A stretch of DNA of 64,000 nucleotides, from contig NC_087250.1 in assembly GCF_037042905.1 (NCBI RefSeq), forward strand, positions 11,348,001 to 11,412,000. Reading direction: 5' to 3'. Below, piece after piece: positions 3,660 to 52,800 of this stretch. Under the pieces are notes generated by a model. It saw nothing but the letters and a program-made list of their open reading frames with translations. It made no database searches and was not told where the DNA came from. Made by a program: the position numbers and the translations under genes. Within the stretch, counting starts at the first letter, position 1, and every line of letters begins with the position of its first letter. Source of the stretch: Lytechinus pictus (taxonomy: Eukaryota).

Positions 3660-4091
3660 CGGTTACACTTCGTATTTCCGAAGGTTCGTAATTCCGAAGG
3701 TTCTTTATTCCGAAGGTTCGTACTTCCGAAACACGCAAATTGCCTATACCTCGATGTTCGTTAATCCGAAAACGTAAAAGGGTTCGTTAATCCGATCATT
3801 TGTGGCGTTATTCCGAAGGTTCGATAATACGAAAACGAAATAAGGTTCGATGTTCCGAAAACTGAATAAGGTTAGTTAATCATTTAGTTTTGGACTAACG
3901 AACCTTCGGAATTACGAACCTCATTTCTTTTTCGGATTAACGAACATTCGGAACAACGAACCTTATTTCGTTTTCGGATTAACGAACCATCGGAATTACG
4001 AACCTTCGAAAATACGAACCTTCGGAATAACAAACCTTCGGAATATCCGAACCTTCGGAATAACGAAGCTTCGGAATTACGAATGTATGCG
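3660..4091. mobile_element. Palindromic foldback MITE built from TTCCGAAGGTTCG-type repeats
   Basis: The left half repeats TTCCGAAGGTTCG and the right half repeats its complement. Direct repeat GGAACATA(C) at 3652 and 4092 gives an 8-9 bp TSD. Confidence 0.85.
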
Positions 4092-4232
4092 GGAACATAC
4101 ACTGTACTATTAAATCCTAAATAAAACATGACATAAAACAATAATAATCTTAACATACACATTTGTATAACATTACTGAGCAAGATGCTACATGTCAAAC
4201 AAAATATGACATACATTCTTCTTATCGGAAAC

Positions 4233-6733: not shown

Positions 6734-8520
6734 CTCTTTCACATTTTCGCCGTATCTGCTCCGAGGACCCTGATTTTTCCTTCCATACCAGGAATTTGCA
6801 GAAACATCTCTGTGCCAGGGGCCACGGGGCCAGGGCAGTCCAACTGGCAATCAACAAAGTTCGTTCTCTCCCCAGATCTGAAGTTCTCAAACCCAAAAGT
6901 GACAAGAAGACTACCGACAGAATACCGCTTGTGACCACCTTCCATCCCAATCTACCCCATCTCCGCAAAATCCTGTGTGATAACCACCACATTTTACACA
7001 CTTCTGATCGTCTCCAACAGGCCGTTCCCGATACTCCCCTTCTAGCATACCGACGACCACCGAATCTCAGGGACCTCATTGTTCGTGCTGAATTGCCCTC
7101 CCTCACTAACCATTCTTCTCCCATACAGCATGGCACCTTCAAATGCACCAGCAACAGGTGTATTATATGTGAAATACACATTCACGAGGGCGACACTCTC
7201 ACCAGCAACTCTACCAGCCTTTCTCACCAAACCAAGGGCAACATCACATGCACTACCACTAATGTTGTATATCTCATCACTTGCAGAGTTTGTAGGATAC
7301 AATACGTAGGGGAACCAAGACCACACTCAAGAAACGATTCTACGGGCACAGATCCACCGTCAACACAGCAAAGCTGGACACTCCAGTTGGCCACCATTTT
7401 AACCTTCCCAACCACTCCATCACTGACATGATGCTACAGGGCATCGAATCTTTAGGTACCCGTCCTGACTCAGTCCGTACTAGCAGAGAGAAGTTCTGGA
7501 TGAGACGACTTCGCACCATCCAACCTCATGGCCTGAACATTCAAGAGGGGAACGACTGATTTGTCCACTTTCCATTTGTGTACACATATAATGTTTCCCC
7601 TCAGCTCTTTTAGATTAGTTACATTATAGTTTCTGCCAATACTTTCCTCCCATATCTCAAACAAGCTCAGCTCCAATTTTTCCTCCCTTATTCAGACGAT
7701 ATTATAATTATTATTATATATATATATTTTTTTTCTCTCTCTCCACTCACCTCTTAGATTTACCTCTTATTCATTTTGCTTATTTTAATGTTTACTATGT
7801 TTTTTTTCTTAATACACCCCCTCTCTCATACAGCATCAGCTTCTTTATTTGCTTTTACCCTTTTAGGCAATTTACTTCCCTTCCATTTATACAGGTTTCT
7901 GGGTTTTTTTTCCCCTCACACCCAGCGGATTGCTATATCAGTTACACGTCTTGTATATATATATATAATTTTCTTTTCATATACATTCCCTTTTGGAAAT
8001 ATTTACATACTTTTATTCTTACAGGTTTATTTTTACACTTCTCTTAGTTTGTTTATTACTCCATCATACATACTTATGTCTTTTGCACATTATCAGTTGT
8101 TCCCCATTCTTTCCCTTTTCCCCACTCTTATGCACCAGTTTATTATGCCTTTCTTTGTTACCTGTTTGACCCACCTCTCACTAATTCTCTTGTTATTCAT
8201 CCCTTCCTCATACCCTCTAACACTGTTTTGTTCCAGATCCTGTTTGATGTTGCCTGCCTCACATCTTAATCCCTCTTGGCTTGAGGTCTTTCTTTGACCT
8301 TACACTAACTTCCCTTTGTGTCTGCCCACTCCTTTTCTTTCATCCCCTTCATTAACCTGATTGGTCATCTCTTCTCACTAATGCCCCTTTTGTCTCCTTG
8401 TTTCTAGTGTTGCTGTTGAATGTTTGTGGTCTATATTATGGTTGTTCTACTTTACATGTTTGTCATTTTGCCTCCGACGAAGATTCTGCTAGGATCGAAA
8501 GCTTAGGCCCCTTTTGACTC
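6734..8520 (+). mobile_element. 5'-truncated Penelope-like element (RT thumb + GIY-YIG endonuclease + 3' pseudo-LTR)
   Basis: RRICS...IPLVTTFHP...YRRPPNLRD...NVVYLITC..C..QYVGE; after a frameshift RFYGHR...REKFW...GLN, with the stop at 7559. Confidence 0.92.
8470..8508 (+). ncRNA. Minimal type I hammerhead ribozyme motif of the Penelope pLTR
   Basis: GCCT-CCGACGA-A-GATTC-tgcta-GGATC-GAAA-GCTT-AGGC: stem I, core with a U4C variant, stem II, GAAA and a palindromic stem III. Confidence 0.75.
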
Positions 8521-10035
8521 TCTAATTTTTAATAATAATAATAATAATAATGGTGGCTACTTATATAGCGCACAGGTCCGCATTTCGGTGCTCATGGCGC
8601 TTCAAGGAAAATAAACACAAAACACAACAACTATAGAAAACAAACAAGAATGGAATTGGAATTCTCCTGAATGAACATAATATTAAACTGTTAATGGGAG
8701 ATTAAGTAAGTTTTCAACTGGGATTTGAATGTTTCTGTTGATGAAATTTGGCGTAATTGGATAGGCAGTTGATTCCATAGCTTTGGTCCTATAACAGAGA
8801 ATGCATGGTCCCCCATTTGTGTTTTGTTCTGGGCGTTTGGAGCAATAGAGTATCAGATGATGAGCGAAGACTACGCGAAGGCTGATATTTTGAGATAGAG
8901 CTGCTGAGATATGTGGGGAAGATAGAATAAATTGAATGATGTATTAGTAAAAGAATTTTGAAAGTGATTCTTTTACCAACAGGCAGCCAATGTAAGGACT
9001 GGAGGATTGGCGAGATGGAGTCATACTTTTTAGTGTAAGTTAGGAGACGGGCAGCAGAGTTTTGTAGACGTTGAAGTTTCGTCAAATCTTTTTGTGGGAG
9101 GTTACAGAACAATGAGTTTGAAAAATCTAAACGGGAGGAAATTAAAGCATGGATAAGTATCTCGGCTGCAGGTTTAGACAGTGACTTTCTGATGAAACTT
9201 AAATTACGTAGTTGATATCTGACATTTTGTTGGACTTGTGTGATATGGTTGCGAAAAGTCATTTCCTGATCAAATATAACCCCAAGATTACGGGCTGTTT
9301 TAGACGGAGTGATACAAGAGCTACCAAGATGGATATGACATGACTGAAAGTCAATTTTACCAAGCATAAACTTTGATCCAAGTATTAAGAATTCTCATTT
9401 ATCATCATTCAGTTTCAGAAAATTAGATACAAGCCATGTCTTAAGGTCTTGTAGACATGCTTCAAGTTTTGTGATAGCAGAGTTCAGTGATGACATTGAG
9501 GGTTGAAAAGACAAATAGAGTTGTATGTCGTCGGCATAACAATGGTTTTTTTAAGCCATGTTTACGAAATATCTTGCTGATTGGTTGCATATAGAGGGAA
9601 TAGAGCAGTGGACCTCCAACAGAGCCCTGGGGTACCCCAAACTTCAGAGTAGTTAAACCTGAGATAGAACTACCGATTCTAACATATTGAGATCGTTCTG
9701 ATAGATAGGATATGAACCAAGCAAGGGAAGTCCCCTTGATACCTAATGAGTTCAGCCTTTCAATTAGGATAGTGTGATCTACTGTGTCAAATGCTGCACT
9801 CATATCAAGCATAATGAGTGCCGTAATGTTGCCATTATCCATTTCTCTATAAATAGTATCTGATAAGTTAACTAGTAGTGTTTCTACACTATGACCAGGC
9901 TTGTACGCGGATTGATGTGGGTCAAGTAACTCATCATCTTGTAAATATGATGTTAGTTGTGAGAAAACAACTCTTTCCAGTAGTTTACCTAAGGAAGACA
10001 GGTTTGATATCGGGCGGTAATTTTTCAAACACTCT

Positions 10036-12099
10036 TTATCTAAGCCTGATTTTTTCAGCGTCGGATGGATGACAGCTTTTTTTACAGATCTGTGGTACAA
10101 CTCCCGAACTAAGACTTGTATTTACTATTCTAGTAATGACAGGCAACATAACTGTGGAACATTTCTTAACCAAATCTGTTGGGATTGGGTCAAGTTCACA
10201 TGATTTGTTTGGATAATTTTTTATAAATACTTCCATTTCACTGATAGTGACAGGTCGAAATTCCCTCAATTCTGACTTAGTTTCGCTAACAGTGTCATTT
10301 GAGTGTAAGGCAGGAGTTAAAAGGCACTGTCGGATTGTTAGAATCTTATCTACAAAATACTGATCGAAGCAATTTGCTAGCTCAGACTGATCACCATGAG
10401 TGAGATGTTCTGGTAAAGGAGATTTTTGTTTTCTATTAAGCAAATCATTGGCAACTTTGTACAATTTTTTTGTGTCTTTCACACAATCCTCAATCTTTTT
10501 CGAATGGTATTGTAACTTAGCATTCTTTATCAAAGTATTGACACGTTGCTTTTGGTCACGATATATCTGCTTGTGAATCTCCAACCTTGTGGACCTAAAT
10601 CGTCTTTCAAACTGTCTTCGAATCAATTTTTCTTGAGTAATTTCTGGGGTGTACCAATCAGTATTGGGGTGAATTGTAACCTTCAGCTGCTTCTCAGGTG
10701 CCAACTTATCAAGAGCAGAGCTGCGCAATGTATTGTACATATCCACTTCTTCATCGACACCATTAACATGTATACAACCTGATATTAGAGACTTAACATG
10801 GGTGTCATCTGCTAACTCTTTCGGGTCAACGGATTTAAAATTTTGTGTTGTTACTATTTTCTTCTGGTTGGTTTGTTTTGGAAGGCCTAAATCGCACATC
10901 AGTGCTGAATGGTCAGATATGCCTTCTACAACACAAATATTACAAAGGTTAACAGTATTCTCATTATGGGTCATGAGCAAATCTAGAACATGGCCACGGT
11001 TATGGGTTGGCTCATTAATATGTTGAGCCATGTTGTAGGCTGTTAACAACTCAGAAAATGATTTAGAAGTAGGAGTTGACAAGTCCATTGGTATGTTGAA
11101 ATCCCCTGCAATCAGCAAGTCAGAAGAACACAGGAGCTGTCCATCAAGAACATTGGAGAATTCCTCCAAGAAAGTCTGAAACTGTGTTGGAGTAGGTGGA
11201 CGATACACATTTATCAGATGCAAGACTTTCTGTTTGTGATTGAGCGACATTTGGATCATTTCAAATGATGTTATATTCGGAGAGTCCAGGATTCTGACAT
11301 CTAGTTGACTCTTGAACAGCACAGCTACCCCTCCTCCTCGTTTACCGGCTCTGGGAATGTGCTTGAAGGTAAAGCCGCATCGTGTCAGCTGACCAATCAC
11401 AGCAGCATCGTTCGGTGTGAGCCAGGTTTCACAGACAGCAACAATGTCCAACTCATGGTCAATCATGTAGTCGACAAGTTCAGCAGTTTTGTTCTTCACC
11501 GATCTTGCATTTAACATAGCAAATTTGATGTTTTTACTTGAAAAGTCTGAATTCAAGTGAGTTCTTTTTAATTTCATGGAGAGTTTCTCTACTTTATCCC
11601 TATGCTGTCTTCCTGCCCTCTTTCCTCTGCGTGTCTTCTTAACTCTGTTAATCCGCAGTGCAGTAATTTGCTGCCAAGTCTCATCATCAATCCGAAGGGT
11701 CTTGCGAGGCAGACTTATGTTGACATTGTAGGGGTTAAGTTGTAAAAGTTCTGTAACACTATACTTGTACATACATTTTGTATTGTTATCAATCATACAT
11801 GTATGATCCTTAGATACATTAGGCGAAGGGCCAGGGTTAATTTCAATATCCCCACTGGTAAGTAGTGTTAGTTGAAAAGTGGGGCTTGCATTCTTATAAT
11901 ACAAGATACATGCTTTTGAGTAACCTTTTACCCTCAAAGACATATCACTACAATTCTTCACATTAGGATATGCATTATAAGTGCATGGGGCTGTATAGAT
12001 GTGACAGGCAGCCTTACATGTACATGGAAGAAGAGTCAGAATTAGACTCATAATAAACAAACACCTCATTCCTTCCATTGTATTTACCTTTAGTATCAC
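10036..12099 (-). CDS. LINE ORF 5' part: hydrophobic leader + 2A motif + APE endonuclease (687 aa open)
   Basis: ORF track. The RT continues in shifted frames (9462..10100, 8789..9367) to about 8691. Confidence 0.85.
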   Translation of the reverse strand: MILKVNTMEGMRCLFIMSLILTLLPCTCKAACHIYTAPCTYNAYPNVKNCSDMSLRVKGYSKACILYYKNASPTFQLTLLTSGDIEINPGPSPNVSKDHTCMIDNNTKCMYKYSVTELLQLNPYNVNISLPRKTLRIDDETWQQITALRINRVKKTRRGKRAGRQHRDKVEKLSMKLKRTHLNSDFSSKNIKFAMLNARSVKNKTAELVDYMIDHELDIVAVCETWLTPNDAAVIGQLTRCGFTFKHIPRAGKRGGGVAVLFKSQLDVRILDSPNITSFEMIQMSLNHKQKVLHLINVYRPPTPTQFQTFLEEFSNVLDGQLLCSSDLLIAGDFNIPMDLSTPTSKSFSELLTAYNMAQHINEPTHNRGHVLDLLMTHNENTVNLCNICVVEGISDHSALMCDLGLPKQTNQKKIVTTQNFKSVDPKELADDTHVKSLISGCIHVNGVDEEVDMYNTLRSSALDKLAPEKQLKVTIHPNTDWYTPEITQEKLIRRQFERRFRSTRLEIHKQIYRDQKQRVNTLIKNAKLQYHSKKIEDCVKDTKKLYKVANDLLNRKQKSPLPEHLTHGDQSELANCFDQYFVDKILTIRQCLLTPALHSNDTVSETKSELREFRPVTISEMEVFIKNYPNKSCELDPIPTDLVKKCSTVMLPVITRIVNTSLSSGVVPQICKKSCHPSDAEKIRLR
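11827..11850 (-). other. 2A-like StopGo (ribosome skipping) motif DIEINPG/P
   Basis: Exact match to D(V/I)ExNPGP, preceded by FQLTLLTSG. Confidence 0.9.
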
Positions 12100-12458: not shown

Positions 12459-14181
12459 TCATAAACAAGGTGAAGGTGACGACCACTCCGCCACTGCTGC
12501 TATCTTGTCGGGGTTGGCTTTCACACCATTGGGTGTGACGATGTGTCCGAGGTACAGTACTTCAGATTGAAATAAAGCACACTTACTTGGCTTCGGCTTG
12601 AGCCCGGCCTTACTCAAGCGTTGGAAAACTTCATCGAGTCGAGAGATGTGATCTTCAAACGTAGGGCTGAAAATTCTCACATCATCTAAGTAGATCAGCA
12701 ATGTTTTCCATTGAAGTCCTTTGAGAACTAGTTCCATACACCGTTCGAATGTACTGGGGGCGTTAGAAAGCCCGAAAGGCATAACATTATACTCGTGTAG
12801 TCCTGATCGCGTCCGAAAAGCAGTTTTGTGATTATCCCCTTCCTTAACCTCTACCTGCCAGTATCCAGACTGCAGATCCAAAGTAGAGAAATATTTACAT
12901 CCACTTAAACAATCTTAACAGTCATCGATACGGGGTAAGGGGAAACTATCGAATTCTGTTACAGCGTTCAGCTTTCTATAATCAACACAGGGGCGAGTTG
13001 TCCCATCCTTCTTTTTTACATATACAAAAGGCGATGTCCAGGGGTTGATGAGGGACGGATGATTCCTGCTTTTAGTTGTTCTCCTATAATGCGTTCTTCC
13101 TCATCGTCCAATGCCCGAGGGGGCCTCCAAGCTGGCTGACGGACAGGTTTAGCTCGTCCAGTTTTAATTTCATGCTGCAGCACAGAGGTGCGACCCAAAT
13201 CATTTGATGATTTCGCAAATGTGTCCGAATGTTTATGTAATAACCCATGAAGTATGTTTCTATCTATGTCACTCATTCCTTCACTGCTTTTCACATACAG
13301 TTCATTGAGACTGGGATGTAATTTGTCAACATTATCACGCGGTATGTTCTCTAAATCACTTTTCATATTTACTCGAGATATTCGGTTGATTACTGATTTT
13401 TAGTCATTCTCGAACTCATCAATTTGCTTGGTAGTAATGATCTCGGTCACTATTCCCACGGTTTGTCCTTTACGCAAAATAACATCCTCGGCAGAGGTGT
13501 TCATAATGCGTATCGGCAGCCCGGATTTGATCTGTTCAGAATTGCATAATGTAGCGCCAATCAGGACTGCCTCCTTTCGCAACCCGGTTGACACCGGTTC
13601 AATAAGGATATCCTGATCTTGATGTAAAGTTACAGCATTGTCGACACACCCTGCTGCCAATATTTCACAATTTGCAGGCACAGTTATTGAAGATTGGAGA
13701 ATAACATGTCATATCGTTGTATCACCTGTTATTTCACAATCGATCCAAACATTGCTAATCTTGATCCCCCTCCTTGCTTCAAATACACAGTCAAAGTGAT
13801 ACAAGAAATCAAGTCCGATTAGCACATCATCGTGGATTGGTGCCACATAAACATCCCATGTCAAAATCGAGTTCGCGATTTCAACATGAACGGTTGATAT
13901 CCCCTTTACATCTAGTAAGCTGTCATCTGCTGTTTTGAGAACAATGTCATTTGTCGGTTTCCGAAGAACAGGTTTATTATCACCACACATTTTATCAAAT
14001 ATTGATTCAGAAACTATAGTTACCGCAGCTCCAGTGTCAATCAATAAGCTTGCCCGAACGCCGTTAACTGCTGCTTGTACATGTGCTGATAACCCATTCG
14101 TGTTGCTTTGTGTCACTTTGATGTCAGTGATTTCTTTAGCTGGATGAGAGACCGGTATCTTGCCGGATGAGCCGGTCTCTA
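12459..14181 (-). pseudogene. pol: Gypsy pol 5' part: aspartic protease and reverse transcriptase (disrupted)
   Basis: LLIDTGAAVT, DLQSGYWQV, MPFGLSNAPSTF, YLDD; several stops. Confidence 0.92.
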
Positions 14182-14191
14182 TTAGTTTCCC
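14147..14191 (-). promoter_or_regulatory. Programmed -1 ribosomal frameshift signal (gag-pol)
   Basis: Slippery G GGA AAC lies just before the gag TAA, followed by a 9-bp stem AGAGACCGG/CCGGTCTCT. The -1 frame is open into the protease ORF 13709..14116. Confidence 0.8.
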
Positions 14192-15087
14192 TGATTCCCA
14201 TAGGACACATTCAGAGAGGCTCCCTGGGGGTGTGGGCAGTAGCGCCTAAGATGTCCCATTTCACCACAGTTAAAGCAGGTACGGGTGTCTTGGTAAGCAC
14301 GTCCTCCCAGTCGTCCTCGCCCTCGACCACGGCCGCCAAAACCATTCAGGCTCAGTTTTTCCGCGACCTTCTCTGCGAGTCAATTGATCTTCTCCTCAAT
14401 AGTTGCGTCCATTTTCGCTTCAATTTATTCTCAATAACGGAATTAGGAGAAGGGGCAACAATGCGGACTCGGTGATTAGGCCGATGTTCGTCCGTGACGG
14501 AGCGATACCTCTCTACCAGGTCCTGTGCCTCACCGAGGCTTGCAGGCTCCCTCATCCCAATAGTCAGAGCTGGTCCTGCAAACCACGGATGAATTGCCGC
14601 AAGGCAATTTGTTCCCTTGTAGCTTCGTTGGCAGTCGGGTAGCCGCGAAGAACAAACCGCCTCAAGTCAGCCACGTAGACGGACAGGGATTCACCAGGAA
14701 GGAGCTTCCTTGTCTCCAGCATTGACAAGAAAGAATTTGGCTTAGTCCTTTCCGCAAACCGCGTTGCCAGGGCCTCTTTCATGAGATGAAACGAACTAAA
14801 AAAATCCTCTGGCTGCGTACGGAAGAGATAATCCGCTGCTTCCCATGTCACTGATGATAGAAGGCGAAGCCTCTTCTCCTCCTCTGACCAGGAGCAGGCG
14901 ACTGCCAAGTTCATGAACAGGCGGATAAAAGTCTCCCTGAGCTATCGCCCGAGAAAGCCGTCTGTCGAGGGAGGGGGACGCTTCCAAACGATACCCGTCC
15001 ACCTGCCTGCTTCGACTCCTCCTCACACATAGAGTCAACCTCATCCTCGAACTTCTGTCGCCTCCTCGATTTAGAACAGGGCATCAT
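14182..15087 (-). pseudogene. gag: Gypsy gag (disrupted) with CCHC zinc knuckle
   Basis: Capsid-like segment (ALRQFIRGL) and CFNCGEMGHLRRYC, ending NQGN*; stops and frameshifts present. Confidence 0.85.
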
Positions 15088-15885: not shown

Positions 15886-17092
15886 TTAACTCTTACTGTG
15901 CCAGTACGAATACCCCTTGACTGCCAGGGGTATTCGAGGGAATCCTAAATTGACCAAAACGTAAGCAGAGACTGATTTTAAAACGGTCATAACTCTTTAC
16001 CCGTACATTGGATAATGAAACTTTCTACACATGAAATCATGCATGGTTCATGGACTTTATGATCGTGTTACTAGTATTATCTTTCTTATTCGCATTTTTA
16101 AAAAATGAGAAAAAATGTAATATTTTACATTGCTTTTTTTTTCAATAAGTAAAACCTTGAAATTATAATTTCATGAACATTTCAACGAGCAAATAACCTG
16201 ATGAATTGTAGAGATACCAAGAAATTAAGAAGATAAAATAAAAGTTCGATGTTTAACCTTTTAAATGACGTAGATATTGATGAAATTGAACAAACAAAAA
16301 TAACAGAAAATAATGCTCTTTTGAATGAAATACTATTTTGGCTATTTAAGTTGCTTCCTCTGAAGAATACACACAAATGAAAGCGTTTTTTTTCAAAAAA
16401 AGGGCATCGTCTTCGATCAAGTGACCAATCACAGTACAGCTGTGATTCCCACACGAACACACACAATGGTATATCAAACGCTGTATCTTCAAAGTGTGGC
16501 CAATCGTAAACTTTCATTCGTGTAGTCTTCAAAATAAGACCCTGTGTTTTTTTTTATTCGTAGTGTAACAAACAAAGTTATTGCCAGTCAGAAGGAGACA
16601 AAATATAAATTTAATATCTCATTCCTAAATAATTTCGCTTCTTTTTTTCTTCGTGATTTTTGTCTACGTCTTTTCTCTATGCTATAGGTGATCTCGGCGC
16701 TTCTATTGATTTATTTTTCTACCATTCTACGGCTATTTTTATTATCATTTACCTCATCTACACATTTTTTCTTCATCTGGATTTCTCTTTTCCTCTTTGC
16801 TATCTATCTTATGCATGTCCTTCCTCTTTCACGCTTCCTCTTTCTACATTAATAATATCAATAAAAATATCAATAATCGTATGATGATAAAGGTAAATAA
16901 TAACGCCAATAGAAACACATATTAGGTTTATCACCACTACTACTACTACGACTACTACAACTACTATAACAACCACTACTACGACGAATATAAGAATTGT
17001 AAGAGCAATTACATTCAAGCATTTTGTAACAATTTTTCCATCCAAATTGACCTTTCAACACTTTGTAAGCACAACCTTTAACCTTTTGTGCC

Positions 17093-19822
17093 AGGCTGAG
17101 GCTGATAAGGTTCCTGAGTGCTTTTATGTCAAAGATGACATTTTGATGAGGAAGTGGAGACCCCCCCCCCCCCTCCCCCGCAGACCTGCTGATGAAGATT
17201 GGTGTATAATTCACCAGGTAGTAGTTCCTCCTTGTTACCGCACGGATATTCTGAAAATGGCTCATAAGTTACCTATGGCAGGTCACGTCGGTAGTCGGAA
17301 GACAGAAGATAGAATTATGAGGCATTTTTATTTGCCTAAGATGCTCAAAGATACTAAATGGGTTCATTATTGCGGAATGAAATAATCGCTAGAGGGTATT
17401 CATTTGTCTCGCAATCTACTATGGTCAACAAGGAAATTCGTGATAACTCTCGCAAAAAGTGTTCACTGGCTCTGGCGATTATGCTCAAAGATGTTGTGCA
17501 TTTCTGTAAGACATGTCATACATGTCATATTATTGGTAAGGCACAGCCTTCTATCAAGCCTGCTCCATTGATACCCATTCCTGCATTTGATGAACCTTTT
17601 ACTAGTGTTCTTGTTGATCGTGTTGGAGCCTTACCCAGAACAAGGTCGGTCACAGATTTCTTCTGACGATTATGGACTTGTCTACACGGTTTCCAGAGGC
17701 GATATCTTCGAGGAGTATCACTGCAAAGACAGTGGTGCAGGCGTTAGTGCAGCTTTTCACTCGGTATGGTCTGCCTAAGAAAATTCAGTCTGATCAAGGG
17801 TCAAATTTCATATCAGGAATATTTCAGCAAGTTATGAAGGAGTTGAGAATAAAGCAGATCAAGTCCTCTGGTTATCACCCACAGTCCCAAGGAGCGTTCG
17901 AACGCTATCATCAGACCCTGAAGACCATGATAAGGGCCTATTGTGAGGACTATCCCGATGACTGGGATAAAGGGATCTCATTCCTACTGTTTGCAACTAG
18001 GGATTCTCCAAATGAGTCCACGGGTTTTAGTCCATTTGAACTGGTCTATGGTCATGAGGTTAGGGGTCCCCTAAAGCTTATCAAAGAGAGGTTTATGGTA
18101 GGATGATGATTATGTAAACCTTCTAGACTATGTGTCAAAGTTTAGAGATGTGGCTAAGGAACACTTGAAAGTGTTGCAGGGAAAATGAAAACTCAAGCTG
18201 ACAAAAATGCAAAAGAGCGAAGTTTCAAGCCTAGAGACAAAGTGTTGGTGTTGTTGCCATTGCAAGATGAGCCCTTGAAAGCTAGGTTTAGTGGTCCGTA
18301 CATAGTCAAAAGGAAATTGAATGATGTCAACTATGTGATCAGTACCCCTGTTCGAAGAAAGTCTCAAAGAGTTTGTCATGTAAACATGTTGAAAGAATAC
18401 TTTGAGCGAGAGGCTAGTCAGCAAATAGGTAAAACACAGGTTAAAGAAGACAAGAAACATCTGAATGTACATGAAGAAGAATGCTATGGAAAGACAGATG
18501 ATAAATTGTCTTATACAGATGTATCTAAGAACGAACCATGTGGTGTAAAGTTGTGTAACTCAGAGATGTTAGGAAATATGGATGAGGCATTAAAACACCA
18601 GCCTGAAGATCAGATAAATGATATATCTGGCCTGTTAAGAGAATATGAGAAGCTATGTAAAGACAAACCAGGTCGTTCACCTTTAAATGTACATGATGTA
18701 GATGTAGGTGATGTAAGACCTATCAAACAGAATCCTTATAGGCTCAATCCAAGCAAGTTGTAAATGGTGAATAAGGAAATATAGTTCATGTAAGATAATG
18801 ACATAATCGAACCGAGTCAGAGCAGTTGGAATTCTCCTATTGTAATGGTTCCAAAGCCAGACGGCTCTCAGAGATTTTGCATTGATTACCGAAAGGTAAA
18901 TGTAGTAACTAAGACTGACTCGTATCCAATTCCTAGGTTAGAAGATTGTATTGATAGGGTTGGAAATTCTGCCTATACCACAAAGATAGACTTGCTTAAA
19001 GGATATTGGCAAGTGTCACTGACTGACGGAGCCAAAGAGATATCAGCCTTTGTCACACCTGAAGGCTTATTTCAATGCAAAATCATGCCATTTGGAATGA
19101 AAAATGCACCAGCAACCTTCCAAAGGTTAACAAATCAAGTGATTGCTGGACTTGACAATTGTGTCGTATACATAGACGACATCCTAGTGTACAGTGATAC
19201 TTGGAATGATCATCTGGATCATCTGAGAGCACTGTTTGACAGACTGGATAATGCCAATCTTGTGATGTTGGAGTAGGAGCAGTATTGCTCCAAGAAGATG
19301 AAGAAGGCATCGAAAAACCAGTGTGCTACTTCTCTAAGAAACTCAATCGGTTTCAGAAGAAGTACTCAACTATTGAAAAAGAGGCCCTGAGTCTTATACT
19401 AGCCCTTCAGCAGTCTGAGGTATATCTAACCAATGGAGAGATTACAGTCTATACAGACCACAATCCTCTTGTGATTTTGGAGAAATTCAAAACAAAGAAT
19501 CAACGACTGTATAGATGGAGCCTAATGCTCCAACGATTCCCTTTGAAAATTGTACACATAAAGGGAAAGAATAATGTAATTGATGAAGCTCTTTCAAGAG
19601 TATCAAAAGTGAAATTATTGTTTTTGACCAAGTGCGTCATTTGAAGAAAATGTCTTTGATGTTCATTTATTTAAACATGTTCGTTAAGTACTATACATTT
19701 GTACACAATAACTGTAAACAATTTATCAAGATGACTTTGAACAGTTAAAAGGAAAAAAAGTAATCTTAAAGAAACCTTTACTACGGTAAAGCTTTCTTTT
19801 CCCCGGTGGGGGAGGTGTTATA
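17093..19822 (+). mobile_element. Degenerate, 5'-truncated Gmr1-like Gypsy retrotransposon (INT-RT-RH order)
   Basis: Integrase (H..GH..CHTC, SDQGSNF, FSGPY) lies upstream of RT (FCIDYRKVN, YIDD) and RNase H (YFSKKL, YTDHNPL). PPT GGTGGGGGAGG at 19805-19815 is followed by TGTTA. An internal deletion falls near 19265. Confidence 0.9.
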
Positions 19823-43374: not shown

Positions 43375-46300
43375 ACCAACCACTAAAAGGTAAGGGTTAT
43401 TGGAAACTTAATACTCATTATTTATATCATGATAATTATTTGATTAATCTCATAAAAGACAAAATCAAGGAATTTAAAATCATCCATCTGAATTCTCAGT
43501 GCAATATGACAATATACTTTTGGACTCCTTTAAATGCTTCATTACAGGTATTTCTATTGAGTATTCAGCCCGGAAGAAAAAGCAAAGAAATCTAGAGAAA
43601 AGTCAGTTATTAACAGAAATCAATGGAATAAAAATGTTGTTACCTTCGAGCAACACCTCTACACCTGATGACCCCCTATTTTTACAGTTAGAGGAACTTG
43701 AAGCAAAACTAGACAAAATTTATGAATTTGGAAATAAAGGTTTGATAACTAGGTCTAGAATCAGGTGGTTAGGGGAAGGTGAGAGGAGCAGTAAATATTT
43801 TTGTAATTTGGAAAATAGAGCTTGGCAGAGGAAGAATATTACTAAACTTAAAGATAACCAAGGCATTTTGATAACAAATTCCAATATCATCTTGAAAAAT
43901 ATCCATGAATTTTATGCCAATTTATATTCAACACCAGATGTTAATTCAATTCCTGTTGACGATAGTGTTCGTAATAGTGCAGTTTTTGACAACATCACTA
44001 TTCCACAATTATCTGAAGATGGTAAACAATTTTTTGAGACTATTTTTTCCAGAAATGAAATATATGAAGCTGTCAAATCAATGAAAATAAATAAAGCCCC
44101 AGGTTTAGATGGGCTCCCTGCTGAGTTTTACTTAGTTTTCTGGAATGATATTTGTGATATGTTAATAACATCTTTTAATTATTCCTTGCAAAACGGTTCC
44201 ATGTCCTTATCTCAGAGAAATGGCATTATTACTCTTCTGCCTAAAAAAGATAGAGGTCCTTTGTTAATAAAAAAATATCGACCTATTACTCTTCTGACCA
44301 CAGATTACAAAAATATTTGCCAATAGTCTAGCTACCCGAGTAAGTTATTCATCCTGACCAGTCTGGTTTTATGAAAGGTCAAAATATCGGCCATAATATT
44401 CGTTTAATTTTAGATATTATTGAATATACTGACTTTAAAAATATTCCAGGTGCAATTTTGTTACTCGATATTGAAAAGGCCTTTGACAGCGTTTCTCATA
44501 GCTTTCTATTCCAAACTTTGAAAAAAATTAATTTCGGTGAAAATTTTATTAACATTGTTAAGACCTTGTACTCCCCTCGTTTAAGTTATGTTTTGAATAC
44601 TGGATATTTAACGGAACGTATATCTATGAAAAGAGGTATTTTTCAAGGATGCCCGATTTCTCCATACCTGTTCTTATTAGTTATTGAAAAAATGGCCCTT
44701 TCCATACGTCAAAATGACCAAATCAAAGGGATTCCATTAGACAATAACATTGAAGCTAATATTTCTATGTTTGCAGATGATTCAGTTTGCTTTTTAAATG
44801 GATCTATATAGTAACCCGTTTTCTCAACTGTTTAAGTTGTTAGACAATTTTGGGAAGTATTCTGGATGTAAAATAAATTTTAGCAAAACTGAAGCAATTT
44901 GGATTGGTTCAAAAAAAGGAAGCCAAGTTTTCCCTTACACCAACCAGGGCATATCTTGGAAAACATCTCAATTTAAATGTCTTGGAGTAAATTTTCCTTG
45001 AATTTGAGCCTACTTTGTTTAAATTACAAAGAAAGGTTGAAAAAATGGAACTTAAAATATCATGCTGGAAAATGAGAAATCTTTCTTTAATAGGAAGGAT
45101 TTGTGTAATTAAAGCTCTTGTGCTTCCAGTGATCTATTTATATTCAGTCCTTTGTATTAAAATACCTCGCTCCTTTTTTAACCAGTTGAATAGCATGTTT
45201 ATAAGTTTATCTGGAGTGGGGGTAAAGATAGGGTCCAAAGAATTAATGTTTGTAATGATTATAAAAATGCTGGTCTCAAAATGATTGACCCCTCAAAATT
45301 TGCCATTGCCCAGAAGATGACATGGGTCAATATCTACTTGATGATACTTTTGATGCTTCTTGGAAATATATTGAACTATCGTTTTTGAATGATTTAAATC
45401 AAGATACCTCATTTTTGTGGAAATGTTATGCCCCAGAATGTGTATTGAACGCCTTGGGCAATGCAGTTAGCTGATTCTTTGCGTTCATGCCTTTATGGTA
45501 TTTATATCGAGAGGAAGCTGCTAAAGAATGTTACGGCTTCATTTTCTCAGAATTGAGCGCATGTTAATCTCTGTGGTTTAATAAATCAATTCGATCTAAA
45601 TCCAAACCTTTTTTCTTTTATGATGTATGGTATGATAAAGGTATTTGTACCATTGCCGATTTGTTTAATCCACCCCTCCCTGGTCACAATGTTTTTGAAG
45701 AATTGGCATTAGATTTTGACATCCCCTCTTCAGATAGAAGGAAATTTAATTTTTTAATGAAAAATATTCCAGAAGAATGGATGGTAAATTTTGATGTTGA
45801 TATTGTTGGCGTTCACGACACCATTGTTGTAAACCTATTAAATTACAAAAAAAATCATAAGAAGTGTACAATGTACTTCTTGGCTCTATCCAGACGGTGA
45901 TATGCTTTTTGGAGCAACAATTTATTGCTCCCTGTTAACATCAACTGGGAAAAGGTTCATTTGAATAATTTATTTTGTTCTCTTGATACTAACTTAAGAT
46001 CCTTTTACTTTAAAAAATTTCACAAAGCCATTGCTTTAAATAAATTAATTTATCAGATCAAACGAAAAGACTCTCCTAATTGCTCCATGTGTGGAAAAGA
46101 AGAGGAAACACTAATTCATTTGTTCTGCGAATGTGAAAAAGTCACATCTCTTTGGCACGCTCTTGAAATTGTAATCACACAGAAAACCGGTTCCCGCTTT
46201 TCTATAACTAATTATGAAAAAATGTTTGGTATACGTAGTGATAAATTTGTTTCATATTTGTTTTTACTATTGAAGTATCATATTTATTCTTGCAAATTTA

Positions 46301-47093
46301 GAAACGAGCTCCCAAACTTTGTCATGTATAAATCTTTTGTTAAGAAACAAAAAGAGTTAGAATATTTGGCAGCAAAAAAAAGCAAAAAGTTACCTAGTCG
46401 AAATGGCGTTTCGATATCTAGGTGTTTTATAATTCTGAGCATTTAGCGCCATTTTATATGTAACTCTGAAACTCTTCCTTTCCCTTCATTTTATCTTATG
46501 TATACATGTTATTTGCACTCCATGTTTGCACTTTTCTAGCAAATTTCTTTGTTAATTTCTGTCCTCTTGATACTTGTGCTGTATTATGGCTGACCTCTGT
46601 AACCTAATACAACCATTCTAACTCGACCCTTTGTTTACTATTCTACCGCCACTGTTAACATGTGCGATGACCCCAGAATGAAAATCGATCAAATTCTTCT
46701 TGTCTTTTCTCACGCTCAGCTTTTATTTTGACCACGTGCAATTCTCCGGCTGGAATGGGCGGGATGGGGGGGACGATGATCTTTGAGTGTGGAGTTTCTT
46801 ACAGTATGTGATGGAAGGGGGGGTGCGAGTATCAGTGTGAGGATATGATTCAAGGCGAGGCGAGCCCCCGGGGGGGGGGCACTCGACCAAAAAAATGGGG
46901 GTCCTTGGAGCGGATCGCCAGCGTGTGAGTGCGTGTGCATCCCTATGGAACGGTCATGCGTGCATGATGCAGCTAGCGCGGCCTCCACCGGGTGCGCTCG
47001 CGCAGAGCTGAGGCGATGGTCGGACAGCGCTCTGCAGCCGCTTTTCATCAAAATTGCAGCTCATTGTAGCAGATCAATGCAATCGGAACGGCG

Positions 47094-49035
47094 CACAGTG
47101 GGCCAGGAGAGAGCAAAAGCAAAGATAAGAACCTGTAGAATGCCTCCATACAATATTTCTCCATTAAATTGATTATAAGTTGCCCATTTTTATTCAATAT
47201 TACCGGAAAATGACTCTATACGGCTACCGCATGTGTAAACGACACGTTTTAGATATTTCACTGTTTTAACAAAACGGATTGCTTAATTTATTTCTTATTA
47301 ACGGTGCTCTTTGATGAATGATTGTTTTAAGTGATGAAAGATTTTCAAGATAAAATGATAATCCCTTCAGAGGCAATTTTGGACGAAACCATTTGACAAT
47401 GGAGGGTTTTAGCATTTTTTTTTTTTCATGAGCATATCTTTTACAAATTGCTGCCGATTGCTGCGCTGTAAATACCATGACGGTCTTTGTTATAGTTCAT
47501 GCTTTACACTGATACCAAATTTAGCAGCATATACGTGCATTTTCTGGAGATATAACCAATTTTCCAACCACATGTTCGCCGTATTTATCACAAAAATCGT
47601 TCCAAGTTAGTGTCCCATTATGCGCGAGCCGAACGTTGCGGGTGACATTGAAACTCCCCGCCGCGTGCTGGGAGAGAGAGAGAGAGAGAAAGGGGGGTGT
47701 CTGGCTCAAGTGTCTGGCTCTTGTGACTGGTGTCTGCCTTTAAAATATTTTCGTTAAACATACGTAAAGGCAAGCTTTCATTTCCAATTCCACTAACTAT
47801 ATAATAATACATGTAACACAACTTCATTTTGATGCCAAACTGTTCCATCCCGTGTCCCATATCTGATATGCTGTCATCCTGAGAAGATTAATTCTTAAGA
47901 TAAGATTCCCGGGTAAGATTATATATTTGTTTTGTTGTTCATAAACCAAGTAGGGGCTACTGTATATCACTATAACACACATGACTAGGGATGTGATAGG
48001 TCTCACGCAGTTTTCTGACAAAATATGAAAATGTGTATAGGACAGAGATGGGATATACGTGGGCTCTATTACATGCCTAAGTTGCATTATCATTATTAGT
48101 ATTTATCCCCCCAAAAGGGTTTGTAACTTCACATACACGTATGAATTCGTTCATCTCTTGGCTCATTTCAAATTTGCTATAATTGTTAGTATCGATCAAG
48201 AAGGAAGTGTATATTATCATTTCAAAATTCAAGGATTGTTTGGTTTATGACTCTCATTGACTTTATATGTATTCCACAGACTAATGGTAACAGGTGACAT
48301 TGTGATTAGTAGCAAATTTTTAAGAGTACAACAATCACAGCCTCTTCCCACTGATGTTCAAAATATGCTAAAAGATCCTCTCACCAAAGACATAATAGTT
48401 GGTGAGATAGTAGAGAGAGACTCTGATTCGGAATAACTTTGTATACGCCGTTCTTGGTGAAATAGGTAGGCCTTGTAGGGCCTTGTACTGATTAACCTGC
48501 AGAGGACCCGGCTTCTATTATTTATCACTAGAATCATTATTTTAAAGATTTCACTGTCCACTTCTGGTATCAATCCATTTTAATTCATGTAGGTGTGGAT
48601 AATCATTGTACCCAGGGAATGAAAATACTTTTTTTACAATTTCACTTTGAATTTTACAATTCCGGATTCTTGGTAGGGCGCCCTCTTTAAGCGATACTCG
48701 AGTCACCATTTGAATTATTTGTACCCCGAGCACAGACTTTTCTTGTTTGTTTGCCTGTTTGTGTGTTTGCTGTTTGCTAATATGCTTAATTATTGCTGAA
48801 ATTTCTCTAAAACTAGTTTCTGAAAATTTGAAACTTATTGTAGAATTAGAAACATGTACTTTCTTCTCAAATGTTAACAGCCAATCAGAAAACAGTATTT
48901 TAACGACGTCATCAATATTTGAAAATACTTTTATTGAATTCTACGGGTGAAATTACCCCTATCTTCAAAATTTAATCGTACAAATGTGTGAATAATGGGT
49001 TTTGGCGCACTTTGGGTTCATTCTGGCCCACTGTG
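47094..49035 (+). mobile_element. Non-autonomous Transib transposon (RAG-related superfamily) with RSS-like ends
   Basis: 13-bp TIR CACAGTGGGCCAG; perfect GC-rich 5-bp TSD CGGCG (47089-47093, 49036-49040); residual transposase-like exon inside. Confidence 0.92.
48280..48436 (+). pseudogene. Last coding exon of a Transib-type transposase
   Basis: After the acceptor ATTCCACAG it reads (R)LMVTGDIVISSKFLRVQQSQPLPTDVQNMLKDP...DSE*, resembling the Transib C-terminal RLLxxSDPxISS...LPxEVxxLL pattern (from memory, not searched). Confidence 0.65.
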
Positions 49036-49814
49036 CGGCGTAACGAAAAATATGCGAAGCTTTGGAGCGGATTTCTTTCTTCTTTTATTCTCGATAAGAA
49101 GAAGATGATATGATTTGGAGCGGCTTTCTTTGTTCTTTTTCTCAATAAGACAAAAATGCTATACCTTGGAACGGAAATTTGAGTGTAAAAATGGGGGTCC
49201 CCTCCGCGGCACATACCCACTATGCATTATATACTGAGTGCCCCCCCCCCCCCCCCCCCGGGAGCGAGCCGAGGGGGAACGTGTGAGAGAGTTAGAGGGC
49301 GGCTGGTCGTCTCCTCCCTCACTTCTGCCCTTTCCAGCCTGAGTAGGTTTTTGTTTTAATGCTTTGCATCATGGTATTTCTTTCTATCATCTTTTTAATA
49401 ACTTTGCCAAAGTTTGTTGCTGATTGGTTTCCATTATAGGGGTTCTTGCTCATGTAAAAGTATGATATTGTTTTAATGAAATGATATACATGTACTCCGC
49501 TTTCTCCTTGTTGCTTTTTTTTCGATCACTCCAATCTTTTGTATATATTTTTATATATATTTGATTTTTTTAATGTAACTTTTATACTGGAATTTGATGT
49601 AAATGATTTATATGTTGATGATTTATCAATAAAAAAATAAATAAAAAAAGGTACGATGACATTTCAAAAACTTAACATAAGTTAAGATTTCATTGTTGAC
49701 GCCGCCGTCGAAAAAGCGGCGCTTACAGTCTCGCTCTGCTATATGCAGGTGAGAGAAAAATGGAAATGGCAAGTTCACAAAAATAACCCTCAAGGTCTAA
49801 AGACTTAGAACAAC

Positions 49815-52800
49815 GGCTCGGTGTAAAAATGGCAGAGGTAAAAATGGCAGAGGCAATAATGGCAGAGGTAAAAATGGCATAGGTAGAAATGGCAGAGGTA
49901 AAAATGGCAGATGTAAAAATATCAGAGGTAAAAATGGCAGAGGTAATAATGGCAGAGGTAAAAATGACAGGGGTAAAAATGGCAGAGGTAAAAATGGCAG
50001 AGGTAAAAATGGCAGAGGCAAAAATGGCAGAGGTAAAAATGGCAGAGGTAAAAATGGCATAGGTAGAAATGGCAGAGGTAAAAATGGCAGATGTAAAAAT
50101 AGCAGAGGTAAAAATGGCAGAGGTAATAATGGCAGAGGTAAAAATGACAGAGGTAAAAATGGCAGAGGTAAAAATGGCAGAGGTAAAAATGGCAGAGGCA
50201 AAAATGGCAGAGGTAAAAATGGCATAGGTAGAAATGGCAGAGGTAAAAATGGCAGATGTAAAAATAGCAGAGGTAAAAATGGCAGAGGTAATAATGGCAG
50301 AGGTAAAAATGACAGAGGTAAAAATGGCAGAGGTAAAAATGGCAGAGGTAAAAATGGCAGAGGCAAAAATGGCAGAAGTGAAAATGGCAGAGGTAATAAT
50401 TATGGCAGAGGTAAAAATGGCAGAGGTAAAAAAAATGGCAGAGGTAAAAATGGTAGAGGTAAAAATGACAGATGTAAAAATGGCTGAGGTAATAATGGCA
50501 GAGGTAAAATGGCAGGGGTTATACTGGGAGAGGTAAAAATGACAGCTCTAAGTAAAATATGGCCAGTCTTAAACCCCCATGCAATGAATTGTCAAAAAGC
50601 CAACGCATGTACATACATTAAATAAGAAGTGCATGTCACGGTTAGGCATTTCATCATCATTATGTCTTCATCGGCCTAACAATGCTATTTACGAATTCGT
50701 TGGAGGTGTACCGTTAACGCTTTTTAAAAAGAAATCAAACGACAGATTTTTTTTCATTCAATTTATCAGGAGCAAAATGAAACTGCACTATTCTCATTCA
50801 TCATTTCATAACATTCCTTTTTGTCTGGCTGGTTTCTTTATATCTATTTTTTTTTTTTACCTTGGTATTTTTTTTCTTATGCCTATTATTGCAATTGTTG
50901 TAAGTTGTTATATTTCTTCTATGCCCCCAGGAGGGGCCGTCAAAGAAATAAAATCATTGTCATTGTCATTGTCATTGTCATTGCCAGGTTTACCGATGCA
51001 AAAAGGAGGAAGAGTAGACATAAGAGAGATGGAGAGACAGAGTGGGTTACGGGGGCGGGGCATGGACGGAAATCTGTCCCGAAAGGTAGGGGGGACAACG
51101 GGCTGATCCAGCCTTGGGGGGGGGGGCAAAAACATTTTCAGCCATATGTTAATCCCCGATCGGCTGCTCGAAGGTAATTTTTGTCTGTTTCATTGAAGGA
51201 GTAGTCCTCATGGTCACTTTTTAGCTTTATTCTTATAAATCAACATAAATATATGATATCATTGTCCTTATTTGTATAATGCGAGCGCGAAGCGCGAGCA
51301 AAATTTTTTGGGAAAATTTATGTATTTTTTTCCTAAAATTTGAACATTTTGGGCAATGTTTGTTATCCTGAAAAAGATGTATATACAACTAAATATTTAC
51401 CACGACCGCGAAGTGCGAGCAGAGCTTAACTGATGGAAAAGGTACCTGTTAAAGACTGCTTGCAATTAGCCATGAGGACGTTACATATTCCAACAATCAA
51501 ATAATGCGAGCGCAAAGCGCGAGCTGAATTTTTTTGAAATTTTTACCTAAAGACTGGAAATTCTAAGCACTTTTTGTAACTTAAACATATAATAGGTATA
51601 TAACTAAACAATTGATGCGAACGCGAAGCGCGAGCGGAAAGTTTTGAGATTTAGACCTAAGAACGAGACACTCTATTCATGTTTTGTAAATCATGAAAAG
51701 GATGAGTAATTGGGGGTCTTTCTTACACCCGGTCCTTACATAAATAAAGCGAGTGCAAAATGCAGCCAGAAAATGTTCATATACGTTTAATTTGAATTGA
51801 TCGAAAAGGTACTTGTTAAGGACTGCTTGCACTTAGCCATGAAGACGTTACATATTTCAACAATCAATGCCAGCGCGAATCGCGAGCTGAAAATTTTTAA
51901 CATTTTTTCAAAAAGAATCGAAAATTTTGATAAATTTTTGTAATCGTGAACAGGGTAGCTATATAACTAAACAATTGATGTAAGCGAAGCGTGAGCAGAA
52001 AAATTCGAGATTTAGACCTAAAAAAACGGGACACTCATGTTTTGTAAATCATGAAAAGGATGAGTAATAGGGGATCTTTCTACATTAATAATGCGAGCAC
52101 AAAATTTTTGATATTGTAATCTGAAACTGGATGATATAAATAGAGAACAAATTGAATATCTGAATAAACATAAGCGTTTTTCAGATTTAGACCTAGAATC
52201 TCGGCATTTTACACATCTATCAGCGAGCGCGAAGCGCGAGCTTAAACTTTTTGATATTCTGATCTGAAAAAAAAAGAGTCAATTTCAGCTATATATTTCA
52301 TGCACTTCGTAGGAAAATTGTGAGGTGGATATGGATCACACTTAATATTTCATTATTATTTGAGTTTTGACATAGGACCGGGACATCCTTATAGGACAAG
52401 TCATATGAAAATGATGACTATCTTCCTATTCCTCTTACTAAGCGCGAGATGAAACAAAAGGGACAATTTAATCATTAAATTTATATCTTATTTATTAACG
52501 CATTTTGCGGGCGAGAAATCTGATGATATTATGGCCTGAAAACTGGACATTTCAAGCACTTTTGTAATTAGGAATAGAATGCATGAGTTAAAATATTTTT
52601 AACCATCAATGCTAGCGCAAATCGCGAGCCAAAATCTTTGATAAACTGTCATGAAATTAATATTGAAACATAAATCGCCAATCAAAATACAAGTAGCACT
52701 ATCTGCTACGTTTTGACAATCAGACTTGAAAAGGGATATTTTCAATCTAAATGGAATACACAAAAATAATAGGTACTGAATAAATCGAATTTGCGAGCGC

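Follow-up and report, generated by a model that had tools for sequence, protein, structure and literature searches.

An Aged Transib Insertion at the Locus

The window analyzed here, a stretch of 64,000 nucleotides from the sea urchin Lytechinus pictus (contig NC_087250.1, positions 11,348,001 to 11,412,000), contains at positions 47094–49035 a Transib transposon whose two ends resemble the 12- and 23-spaced recombination signal sequences (RSS12 and RSS23) of V(D)J recombination. A sequence-only reading of the window had suggested that the family may use a true 12/23 asymmetry, which would have been fresh evidence for a 12/23 architecture older than RAG1/RAG2. We find that the nonamer-like motifs are real conserved boxes and that the asymmetry of this copy most likely reflects a 57-bp deletion at its 5′ end. 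The element and its insertion site comprise the following features.

47094–49035, + strand: the whole element, 1942 bp, a non-autonomous, internally deleted Transib
47089–47093, no strand: left copy of the target site duplication (TSD), CGGCG, a single copy in contigs of uninterrupted paralogous sites
49036–49040, no strand: right copy of the TSD, CGGCG, read in the sequence and at contig joints
48269–48436, + strand: transposase remnant, the last 55 codons and stop of a Transib transposase

Contigs from four public runs (X1, X2, X6 and X15; three coded organisms) were aligned onto 46950–49180. They are described here by their best-supported variants, indels and loose ends, beyond which lie a further 132, 26 and 657, respectively, and the lack of variants within the terminal inverted repeats (TIRs) among those described is therefore no evidence of TIR conservation. 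Contigs of uninterrupted copies of the flanking repeat join 47088 directly to 49036, skipping 1947 bases (1942 + 5) with 5 letters shared; there are 15 such contigs in X2, 14 in X6, 2 in X15 and none in X1. Because of this joint, the element borders and the 5-bp duplication are fixed, and a precise 1942-bp insertion with a 5-bp duplication is proven by the paralogous uninterrupted sites. The GC-rich TSD that had been proposed from the letters alone is thus read on both sides of the element and as a single copy where the element is missing.

The summed contig depth in X2 was 3e5 to 9e5 in the flanking repeat and ~1e4 in the element, which is a moderately repeated family, the flanks being a hugely abundant repeat. 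An X1 contig (record 7) crosses the right end into a different flank, so element copies exist at other loci. Furthermore, among the variants listed, there are at least ~26 element positions where nearly all contigs of all runs differ from the window base. These many private substitutions indicate that the window copy is aged, which makes a private deletion plausible. The repeat that hosts the element (46700–47093 and 49041–49350) carries inverted arms containing G10/C10 at 46870–46884 and 49236–49250, and 51–53-bp tandem units at 49062–49175.

The transposase remnant matches residues 267–321 of P0121 (tblastn, 89% identity, E 3e-26), a Lytechinus pictus protein of 321 aa representing the C-terminal half of a Transib transposase, as well as the C-terminal tails of P0124, P0125, P0126, P0129 and P0130 (695–719 aa; E 1.5e-10 to 4e-7). 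Insect-type Transib proteins match the window in 9 of 120 cases, at 48269–48433 on the + strand, and this is the sole coding remnant found. The position of the remnant on the + strand, close to the right end, identifies the left end as the 5′ TIR and the right end as the 3′ TIR. Its relative P0124 aligns over residues 213–683 with chain residues 7–460 of HzTransib (6pqn) at E 1.7e-96, compared with E 6.5e-4 for amphioxus RAG1L (6b40), and the surviving exon is of Transib type and not RAG1L, as the sequence-only reading held. This coding remnant, the inverted ends with their CAC heptamers and the proven GC-rich duplication bear out the assignment of the element to Transib.

Another Lytechinus pictus protein, P0122 (LOC129267468, 368 aa), carries a Transib C-terminal tail exon 88% identical to that of the window, fused in the predicted protein with the immunoglobulin-superfamily domains PF13895, PF13927 and PF08205. 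It may be an annotation chimera or an exonized Transib copy within an immunoglobulin-superfamily gene; if it is the latter, RSS-like signals would lie inside such a gene. A 129-aa minus-strand open reading frame (ORF) in the element, at 48551–48940, found nothing among PDB sequences at E ≤ 10 and was treated as non-coding.

The Two Ends of the Window Copy

The ends of the element carry the following features, scored against the RSS nonamer consensus ACAAAAACC.

47094–47106, + strand: first 13 bp of the 5′ end, CACAGTGGGCCAG (heptamer, then GGCCAG), the same as at the 3′ terminus
47113–47121, + strand: 5′-end box 1, GCAAAAGCA, at a 12-bp spacing, 6/9
47125–47133, + strand: nonamer-like word ATAAGAACC, at a 24-bp spacing, 7/9, its nonamer position 5 being G
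49029–49035, − strand: 3′ heptamer CACAGTG, read in the sequence
49008–49016, − strand: 3′-end box 1, CCCAAAGTG, at a 12-bp spacing, 4/9
48997–49005, − strand: 3′-end box 2, CCAAAACCC, at a 23-bp spacing, 7/9
48881–49035, − strand: 3′ subterminal region and TIR, homologous to the + end of the element at metagenome locus L041 (69% over 174 columns)

The left end reads CACAGTG (47094–47100), a 12-bp spacer GGCCAGGAGAGA and then GCAAAAGCA; the right end, on the minus strand, reads CACAGTG (49035–49029), a 23-bp spacer and CCAAAACCC at 49005–48997. This layout, the recomputed nonamer scores (6/9 on the left and 7/9 on the right) and the exact TIR of 13 bp all agree with the earlier description. 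Matches to the 13-bp TIR with at most 2 mismatches number two in the window, both of them the element ends, with 0.58 expected. The likeness of the two ends extends ungapped past the 13-bp TIR, out to position 26 (20/26). Furthermore, the right end carries both boxes, the 12-spaced CCCAAAGTG and the 23-spaced CCAAAACCC, and the A-rich nonamer-like block ~23 bp from the heptamer is present at the 3′ end and absent at the 5′ end.

Could the nonamer-like words be there by chance? Among the 9-mers of the window, 1.85% score at least 6/9 and 0.33% at least 7/9. The probability of at least 6/9 at 12 bp together with at least 7/9 at 23 bp, in either orientation, is ~1.2e-4, rising to ~1e-3 with ±1 spacers allowed, so that the motifs exceed chance. 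Two nonamer positions are reported as essential in PMC1131882, position 5 among them. Inside the element, direct copies of the motif TTTTA-N-A-N-ATTTCACTGT occur at 47247–47264 and 48540–48557 (16/18 alike), each containing the heptamer-like word CACTGT.

Related Families Share a Two-Box End

Metagenome contigs were scanned with the pattern CACAGTGGGCCAG-N7-C-N-AAAG, which gave 61 loci. Eight of them (L002, L017, L018, L025, L035, L039, L055 and L061), which are GC-rich and have no similarity past the pattern, were taken as chance and excluded before all counts. At the other 53 loci, CACAGTGGGCCAG heads Transib ends, its 13 bases having been part of the search pattern. Forty-seven loci, several of them overlapping on shared contigs, constitute one family, M1, and six (L003, L015, L029, L036, L040 and L041) belong to other families. 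A search of the loci for partner ends (13-mer, at most 2 mismatches) returned further M1 ends and chance words and no new family, and tblastn of sea-urchin-type transposases against the six non-M1 loci found no coding remnant.

For M1, an insect-type family, 19 distinct ends were obtained on the 5′ side and 16 on the 3′ side, and the flank differs from end to end. Its consensus ends agree at 36 of 39 positions, and the agreement stops at position 39 (7 + 23 + 9). The 12-spaced box is ACAAAAGCT at the 5′ end and TCGAAAGCT at the 3′ end, and both ends have the 23-spaced CCAAAATTC. The same order was observed in other families: the L036 end reads GCAAAAGTG, CG, CCAAAATAG; both ends of L041 read ACCAAAGTG, TA, CTAAAAT; and the L040 end reads CCAAAAGCG, GC, AAAAATTAA. 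The box 2 word C[C/T]AAAA is present in 6 of the 9 family-level ends, with AAAAAT at the same place in L040, and box 2 is missing in two, the window 5′ end and L029, which is unrelated to L036. Over these nine ends, the mean majority fraction by TIR position was as follows.

1–13, heptamer plus GGCCAG: 1.00, in the search pattern
14–20, spacer: 0.62, outside the search pattern
21–26, box 1: 0.93, largely in the search pattern
27–30, spacer: 0.53, outside the search pattern
31–36, box 2: 0.78, outside the search pattern
37–45, beyond the boxes: 0.54, outside the search pattern

The window 3′ end (49000–49035) is 81–87% identical to the ends of other families, and this cross-family similarity reaches no further than TIR position 36 (49000); three X15 contigs share the terminal 36 bp (49000–49035) only. 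A pattern holding box 2 and not box 1 gave one match in genome contigs, in a bacterial metagenome-assembled genome, and none in viral contigs. The bacterial match has no other TIR similarity and was taken as chance, so the box-2-only pattern yielded no unbiased sample for box 1. These results indicate that the nonamer-like positions keep constant spacings of 12 and 23 bp and vary less than the spacers, as the sequence-only reading had anticipated, but that both boxes stand on both ends, which it had not.

M1 encodes a Transib transposase: L021 and L037 cover residues 1–700 of P0001, and L047 covers residues 22–629 of P0099. The M1 elements of 1.9–2.5 kb contain only transposase matches, apart from a nested piggyBac-type transposase fragment in L011 (1885–2283, − strand; PF13843, E 1.7e-13). 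In M1 (within loci L001–L060, e.g., L011 1156–3413 and L004 2501–4369), 21 of the 35 distinct ends have CAGTG, CACTG, CAATG or CATTG as the TSD, and these CA-N-TG target words resemble the core of M1's own heptamer.

A Probable 57-bp Deletion at the 5′ End

The 5′ end of the window copy was compared with L036, its nearest 5′ homologue, around the following features.

47112–47123, + strand: deletion junction, two adjacent AGCAAA words between which L036 has 57 bp, including the 23-spaced CCAAAATAG
47118–47174, + strand: 5′ subterminal region, homologous to L036 131–187 (77%)

L036 matches the window 5′ end in two blocks, 45–75 against 47089–47119 (90%) and 131–187 against 47118–47174 (77%), with 57 extra bases between them. 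These bases open with AGTGCGCCAAAATAG, which is box 2 and continues the inverted repeat, and L036 TIR positions 20–36 agree with the window's own 3′ TIR at 15 of 17 positions, including an identical run of 14 bases, AAAGTGCGCCAAAA. Because the start of the 57 bases continues the TIR in the same way as the window 3′ end does, the L036 state is taken as ancestral and the window 5′ end as having lost it; the absence of a 23-spaced box there follows from the missing 57 bp. The word ATAAGAACC, at 24 bp, was brought to that distance from the heptamer by the deletion.

Contigs from other organisms break at the same place. Record 3 of X1 and record 9 of X15 (organisms A and D), otherwise 97–99% like the window, align from 47117 rightwards only, leaving 46 and 295 unaligned letters, respectively, to the left of 47117. 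Since the depth of 4.3 in bin 47100–47174 equals 5.56 × 58/75, X1 has no cover of 47100–47116. In X15, the depth of 34 across the same bin would fit a single contig that runs through the TIR, an insert and then 47117 onward. A true 12/23 asymmetry as a property of the family is not supported: relatives have both boxes on both ends, 57 bp are lost relative to L036, and the A and D contigs break at the junction. The combination of a 12-type 5′ end and a 23-type 3′ end was seen in the window copy; L036 is two-boxed, and the relatives are symmetric. It is most likely, in our judgment, that the 12/23 asymmetry of the window results from a 57-bp deletion in this copy or in a small sub-lineage.

Several points weigh against this interpretation. 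The case for a deletion is built on the window copy, L036 and the contigs of organisms A and D, and the deleted 5′ end may occur at other loci with other TSDs; it is by inference only that the unaligned X1 and X15 letters hold the 57-bp segment. The conservation of box 1 across families is partly built in, as the search pattern required C-N-AAAG. The orientation of the window copy (RSS12-like at 5′ and RSS23-like at 3′) fits the pattern published in PMC1131882. Finally, box 1 is closer to the nonamer consensus at the 5′ than at the 3′ end, both in M1 (7/9 against 5/9) and in the window (6/9 against 4/9), and this difference in both orientation-known families leaves room for a functional asymmetry.

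The N-Terminal Region of the Transposase Relatives

A search with an M1 fragment returned 136 proteins at E ≤ 1e-3; among the 120 listed, most are 600–740 aa long, and the named ones are from insects. The Pfam RAG1 family PF12940 was passed by 2 of 4 tested relatives of the fragment. Within the window element, none of the 11 ORFs of at least 60 aa matched a Pfam family, with sub-threshold noise only and neither RAG1 nor Transib among it. Pfam was also blank on the true Transib pieces of L011 (0/2) and on P0001, so for short fragments such a blank carries little weight. The 42 window ORFs put to Pfam, of 59 ORFs of at least 110 aa, gave no RAG2-like or kelch match.

The 27 full-length proteins that were aligned show no variation at D319, D434 and E642 (P0124 numbering), and we read these residues as the putative catalytic triad of the P0124-type transposase. 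Conservation is 90% or more in a GRP motif (G138, R139) and in S148, K152 and R154, which come after it. This near-invariant motif lies in ~180–210 extra N-terminal residues of the sea-urchin-type and M1-type transposases. The profile of the family finds HzTransib at E 3.2e-188, and because that match begins only at profile position 181, the crystallized HzTransib chain does not include the GRP region. Against RAG1 chains the profile gives E 1.5e-9 in three collinear stretches, the first of which aligns the GRP motif with the GRPR of the RAG1 nonamer-binding domain; this stretch alone is not significant (i-Evalue 15).

An AlphaFold2 model of P0124 residues 1–263 was confident, with a mean pLDDT of 87.9. 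Model residues 212–261 superpose on mouse RAG1 460–510 (Z 9.0–9.6, rmsd 0.9–1.0 Å, 50 residues aligned) and also on HzTransib 21–74. Over the longer stretch 138–263, the comparison with RAG1 409–531 (6dbw_C) gave Z 8.4 with 100 residues aligned at an rmsd of 12.8 Å; as modeled, the N-terminal pieces of the two proteins are collinear but hinged differently. A Foldseek search with the N-terminal model gave nothing at E ≤ 0.001, and RAG1 chains fill most of the top ranks (E 0.35–4).

Alternative Explanations

Could the 12/23 pair be a genuine design, in which the working 5′ end has the 12-box only, the 3′ end has the 23-box, and the transposase synapses unlike ends as RAG does? The motifs lie at exactly 12 and 23 bp, which is unlikely by chance; Transib5, Transib2_AG and TransibN1-3_AG set a precedent in the same orientation (PMC1131882); in M1 and the window the 5′ ends have a better box 1 than the 3′ ends do; and the N-terminal GRP motif of full-length relatives is collinear with the RAG1 nonamer-binding domain. 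The ends themselves speak against it, as the 3′ end has box 1 too and the 5′ end has a 7/9 word at 24 bp. Relatives carry both boxes on both ends, L036 keeps box 2 exactly where the window misses 57 bp, and the junction is not shared by the near-identical copies of two other organisms. We consider such a design unlikely, although it survives better than the other alternatives.

It is far less probable that the nonamer-like words are A-rich by chance, as part of an AT-rich subterminal stretch, and have no role, and that the terminal 13 bp alone matter. The scores are modest (4/9 to 7/9), L029 is without box 2, and the TIRs of HzTransib are described as resembling the RSS nonamer little or not at all (Carmona et al. 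2016, PMC4840297). Besides the joint probability of ~1e-4 to 1e-3, the recurrence of box 2 in place in unrelated metagenome contigs, although it was absent from the search pattern, argues against chance. The same is true of the limits of similarity, since position 39 is the last at which the M1 ends, 5′ and 3′, agree, and the cross-family similarity ends at position 36.

That the element is a relic of a RAG-like (RAGL) transposon instead of a Transib is scarcely credible: an RSS-consensus heptamer and a 5-bp TSD are common to RAGL elements (PMC7204232) and sea urchins carry RAG1L/RAG2L genes (10.1101/2023.08.20.553239; PMC8355894), but the E values place the relatives of the remnant with HzTransib and not with RAG1L, the scanned window ORFs include no RAG2-like or kelch match, and the heptamer is adjoined by GGCCAG and not by an A-rich TR2.

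A Proposed History of the Element

We regard it as probable that the element is an aged non-autonomous deletion derivative of an HzTransib-like Transib, with a two-box ancestral end and a 12/23 pair made by the 57-bp deletion. The cut-and-paste insertion into a copy of the very abundant repeat, with its 5-bp duplication, the state of a non-autonomous deletion derivative and the conserved end boxes are established; the remaining steps are proposed. A full-length partner (~700 aa, with a RAG1-core-like DDE) presumably supplied the transposase in trans; by analogy with HzTransib, this enzyme would nick at the border of flank and CAC, form a hairpin on the flank and reinsert the element with a 5-bp stagger.

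The ancestral end of the clade would have been an essentially symmetric TIR of ~36–39 bp, in the order CACAGTG, GGCCAG, a CAAAAG-type box at 12 bp and a CCAAAA-type box at 23 bp. The window 3′ end appears to keep this full two-box TIR, and the window 5′ end would have lost the 23-spaced box in the 57-bp deletion. The 12/23 pair noted earlier would consequently be box 1 of a truncated end and box 2 of an intact end. The end boxes are probably recognized by the transposase. The A-rich boxes are 11 bp apart, one helical turn, and would lie on the same helix face, where they might be read by the N-terminal GRP domain or might aid bending.

It is also conceivable, though we rate it as rather improbable, that in the clade of sea-urchin and insect-type elements, whose transposases are only ~40% identical, both boxes stand on every end and the two ends are read differently by a transposase dimer, one at box 1 and the other at box 2, so that a 12/23-type synapsis is latent in symmetric ends. 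If this were true, a single deletion would give a pure 12-signal, and with it a route from a symmetric Transib TIR to an RSS12/RSS23 pair.

Significance

Transib ends of the RSS12/RSS23 kind have been published since 2005 (PMC1131882) and extended by later papers, which cover Transib subgroups and RAGL-A/B elements. That Transib has 12/23-like ends, which may therefore be older than RAG1/RAG2, already stands in print; the part of the argument that relied on a family-level asymmetry in this element is not supported. Because the asymmetry of the window copy is best explained by a deletion, the copy adds little to the argument that 12/23 came before RAG. Its use lies in providing a well-delimited echinoderm Transib family with an exact RSS heptamer.

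A modest new lead would be the two-box end of ~39 bp, apparently conserved across phyla in sea-urchin and insect-type Transibs. The embedded 12-spaced box may be present in published TIR alignments already. Between the sea-urchin and insect-type elements, the 36–39-bp two-box end is 81–87% conserved, compared with an identity of only 36–41% for the transposases. Such conservation of the ends despite diverged transposases suggests either strong constraint on end recognition or horizontal transfer. Two-box ends together with a transposase that has the N-terminal GRP region would make a good substrate for nonamer reading in a RAG2-free system.

Other Features of the Window

Outside the element, fragments of LTR-retrotransposon pol (protease, RT, RNase H and integrase) and of LINEs (endonuclease and RT) fill much of the window.

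3257–7181, − strand: LTR-pol/LINE fragment
9462–12099, − strand: LTR-pol/LINE fragment
12459–14245, − strand: LTR-pol/LINE fragment
16897–19644, + strand: LTR-pol/LINE fragment
43478–46446, + strand: LTR-pol/LINE fragment

The best named relative of a LINE ORF in the window is a Lytechinus pictus protein with 91% identity over 32% of the query. At 49823–50545 lies a tandem array of 47.9 copies of the 15-bp unit GTAAAAATGGCAGAG, whose translation (ORF 49723–50547) gives spurious Pentapeptide matches in Pfam.

Comparison with Known Systems

Kapitonov and Jurka (2005; PMC1131882) described Transib TIRs ~38 bp long whose A-rich nonamer-like block lies ~23 bp away from the heptamer, and reported that most Transib families have RSS23-like TIRs, and that Transib5 of Drosophila melanogaster and Transib2_AG and TransibN1-3_AG of Anopheles gambiae have RSS12-like 5′ and RSS23-like 3′ ends. 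These insect elements, as described, share with the window element CAC-heptamer termini, a 5-bp GC-rich TSD, an A-rich box ~23 bp in, non-autonomous members, and a 5′ end that reads RSS12 with a 3′ end that reads RSS23. The window element differs in that its 12-type 5′ end can be traced back to a two-box end that lost 57 bp and its relatives are symmetric, as well as in its echinoderm host and its heptamer, CACAGTG instead of the Transib consensus CACAATG.

Later work has broadened this picture. Yakovenko et al. (2021; PMC8355894) built the "Transib seed" hypothesis on RSS-like Transib TIRs, and Tao et al. (2022; PMC9435367) reported asymmetric TIRs throughout Subgroup I Transibs and both kinds in Subgroup II. 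According to Martin et al. (2023; 10.1101/2023.08.20.553239), asymmetric TIRs, a CTT and a nonamer-binding domain (NBD) with GRPR/K are all found in Transib transposons, and many echinoderms have Transibs with intact TIRs. A GRP-type nonamer-binding-like region in Transibs is likewise on record (PMC9435367; PMC1131882).

HzTransib of Helicoverpa zea (PDB 6pqn, 6pqr, 6pqu, 6pqx, 6pqy and 6pr5) shares the transposase core and the 5-bp TSD, the latter reported in PMC4840297, where the nick-hairpin mechanism is also cited. Its crystallized chain lacks the GRP region held by the extra N-terminal residues of the sea-urchin-type and M1-type proteins, and its nonamer-poor TIRs, as characterized in the same paper, contrast with the boxes of the window family. 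The Nozomi/Kodama Transib lineage of Drosophila (10.64898/2026.08.26.747230) is reported to include internally deleted derivatives of 1.4–2 kb that retain their TIRs and need an autonomous partner, as the window element would, and the 5-bp CARTG TSD given for Nozomi resembles the CA-N-TG duplications of M1. It is a different lineage in a different host, and the window family uses GC-rich TSDs.

RAGL-A of Ptychodera flava, as presented in 10.1101/2023.08.20.553239, is similar in its consensus-like heptamer, adjoining conserved block and AT-rich nonamer-like box, and its enzyme also has a GRP-type nonamer-binding-like region. Unlike the window element, it encodes RAG1L and RAG2L, and its ends differ by a 10-bp spacer asymmetry; the window enzyme is of Transib type, with no RAG2L seen in the scan of 42 window ORFs, and its ancestral ends are symmetric. 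With the RSSs of V(D)J recombination (consensus as given in PMC1131882), the window element shares the identical heptamer CACAGTG and nonamer-like words at 12 and 23 bp spacing. In contrast to those RSSs, its sites are the ends of a transposon and not signals beside receptor gene segments, both spacings occur on the same end, and the first 6 bases of the spacer are invariant.

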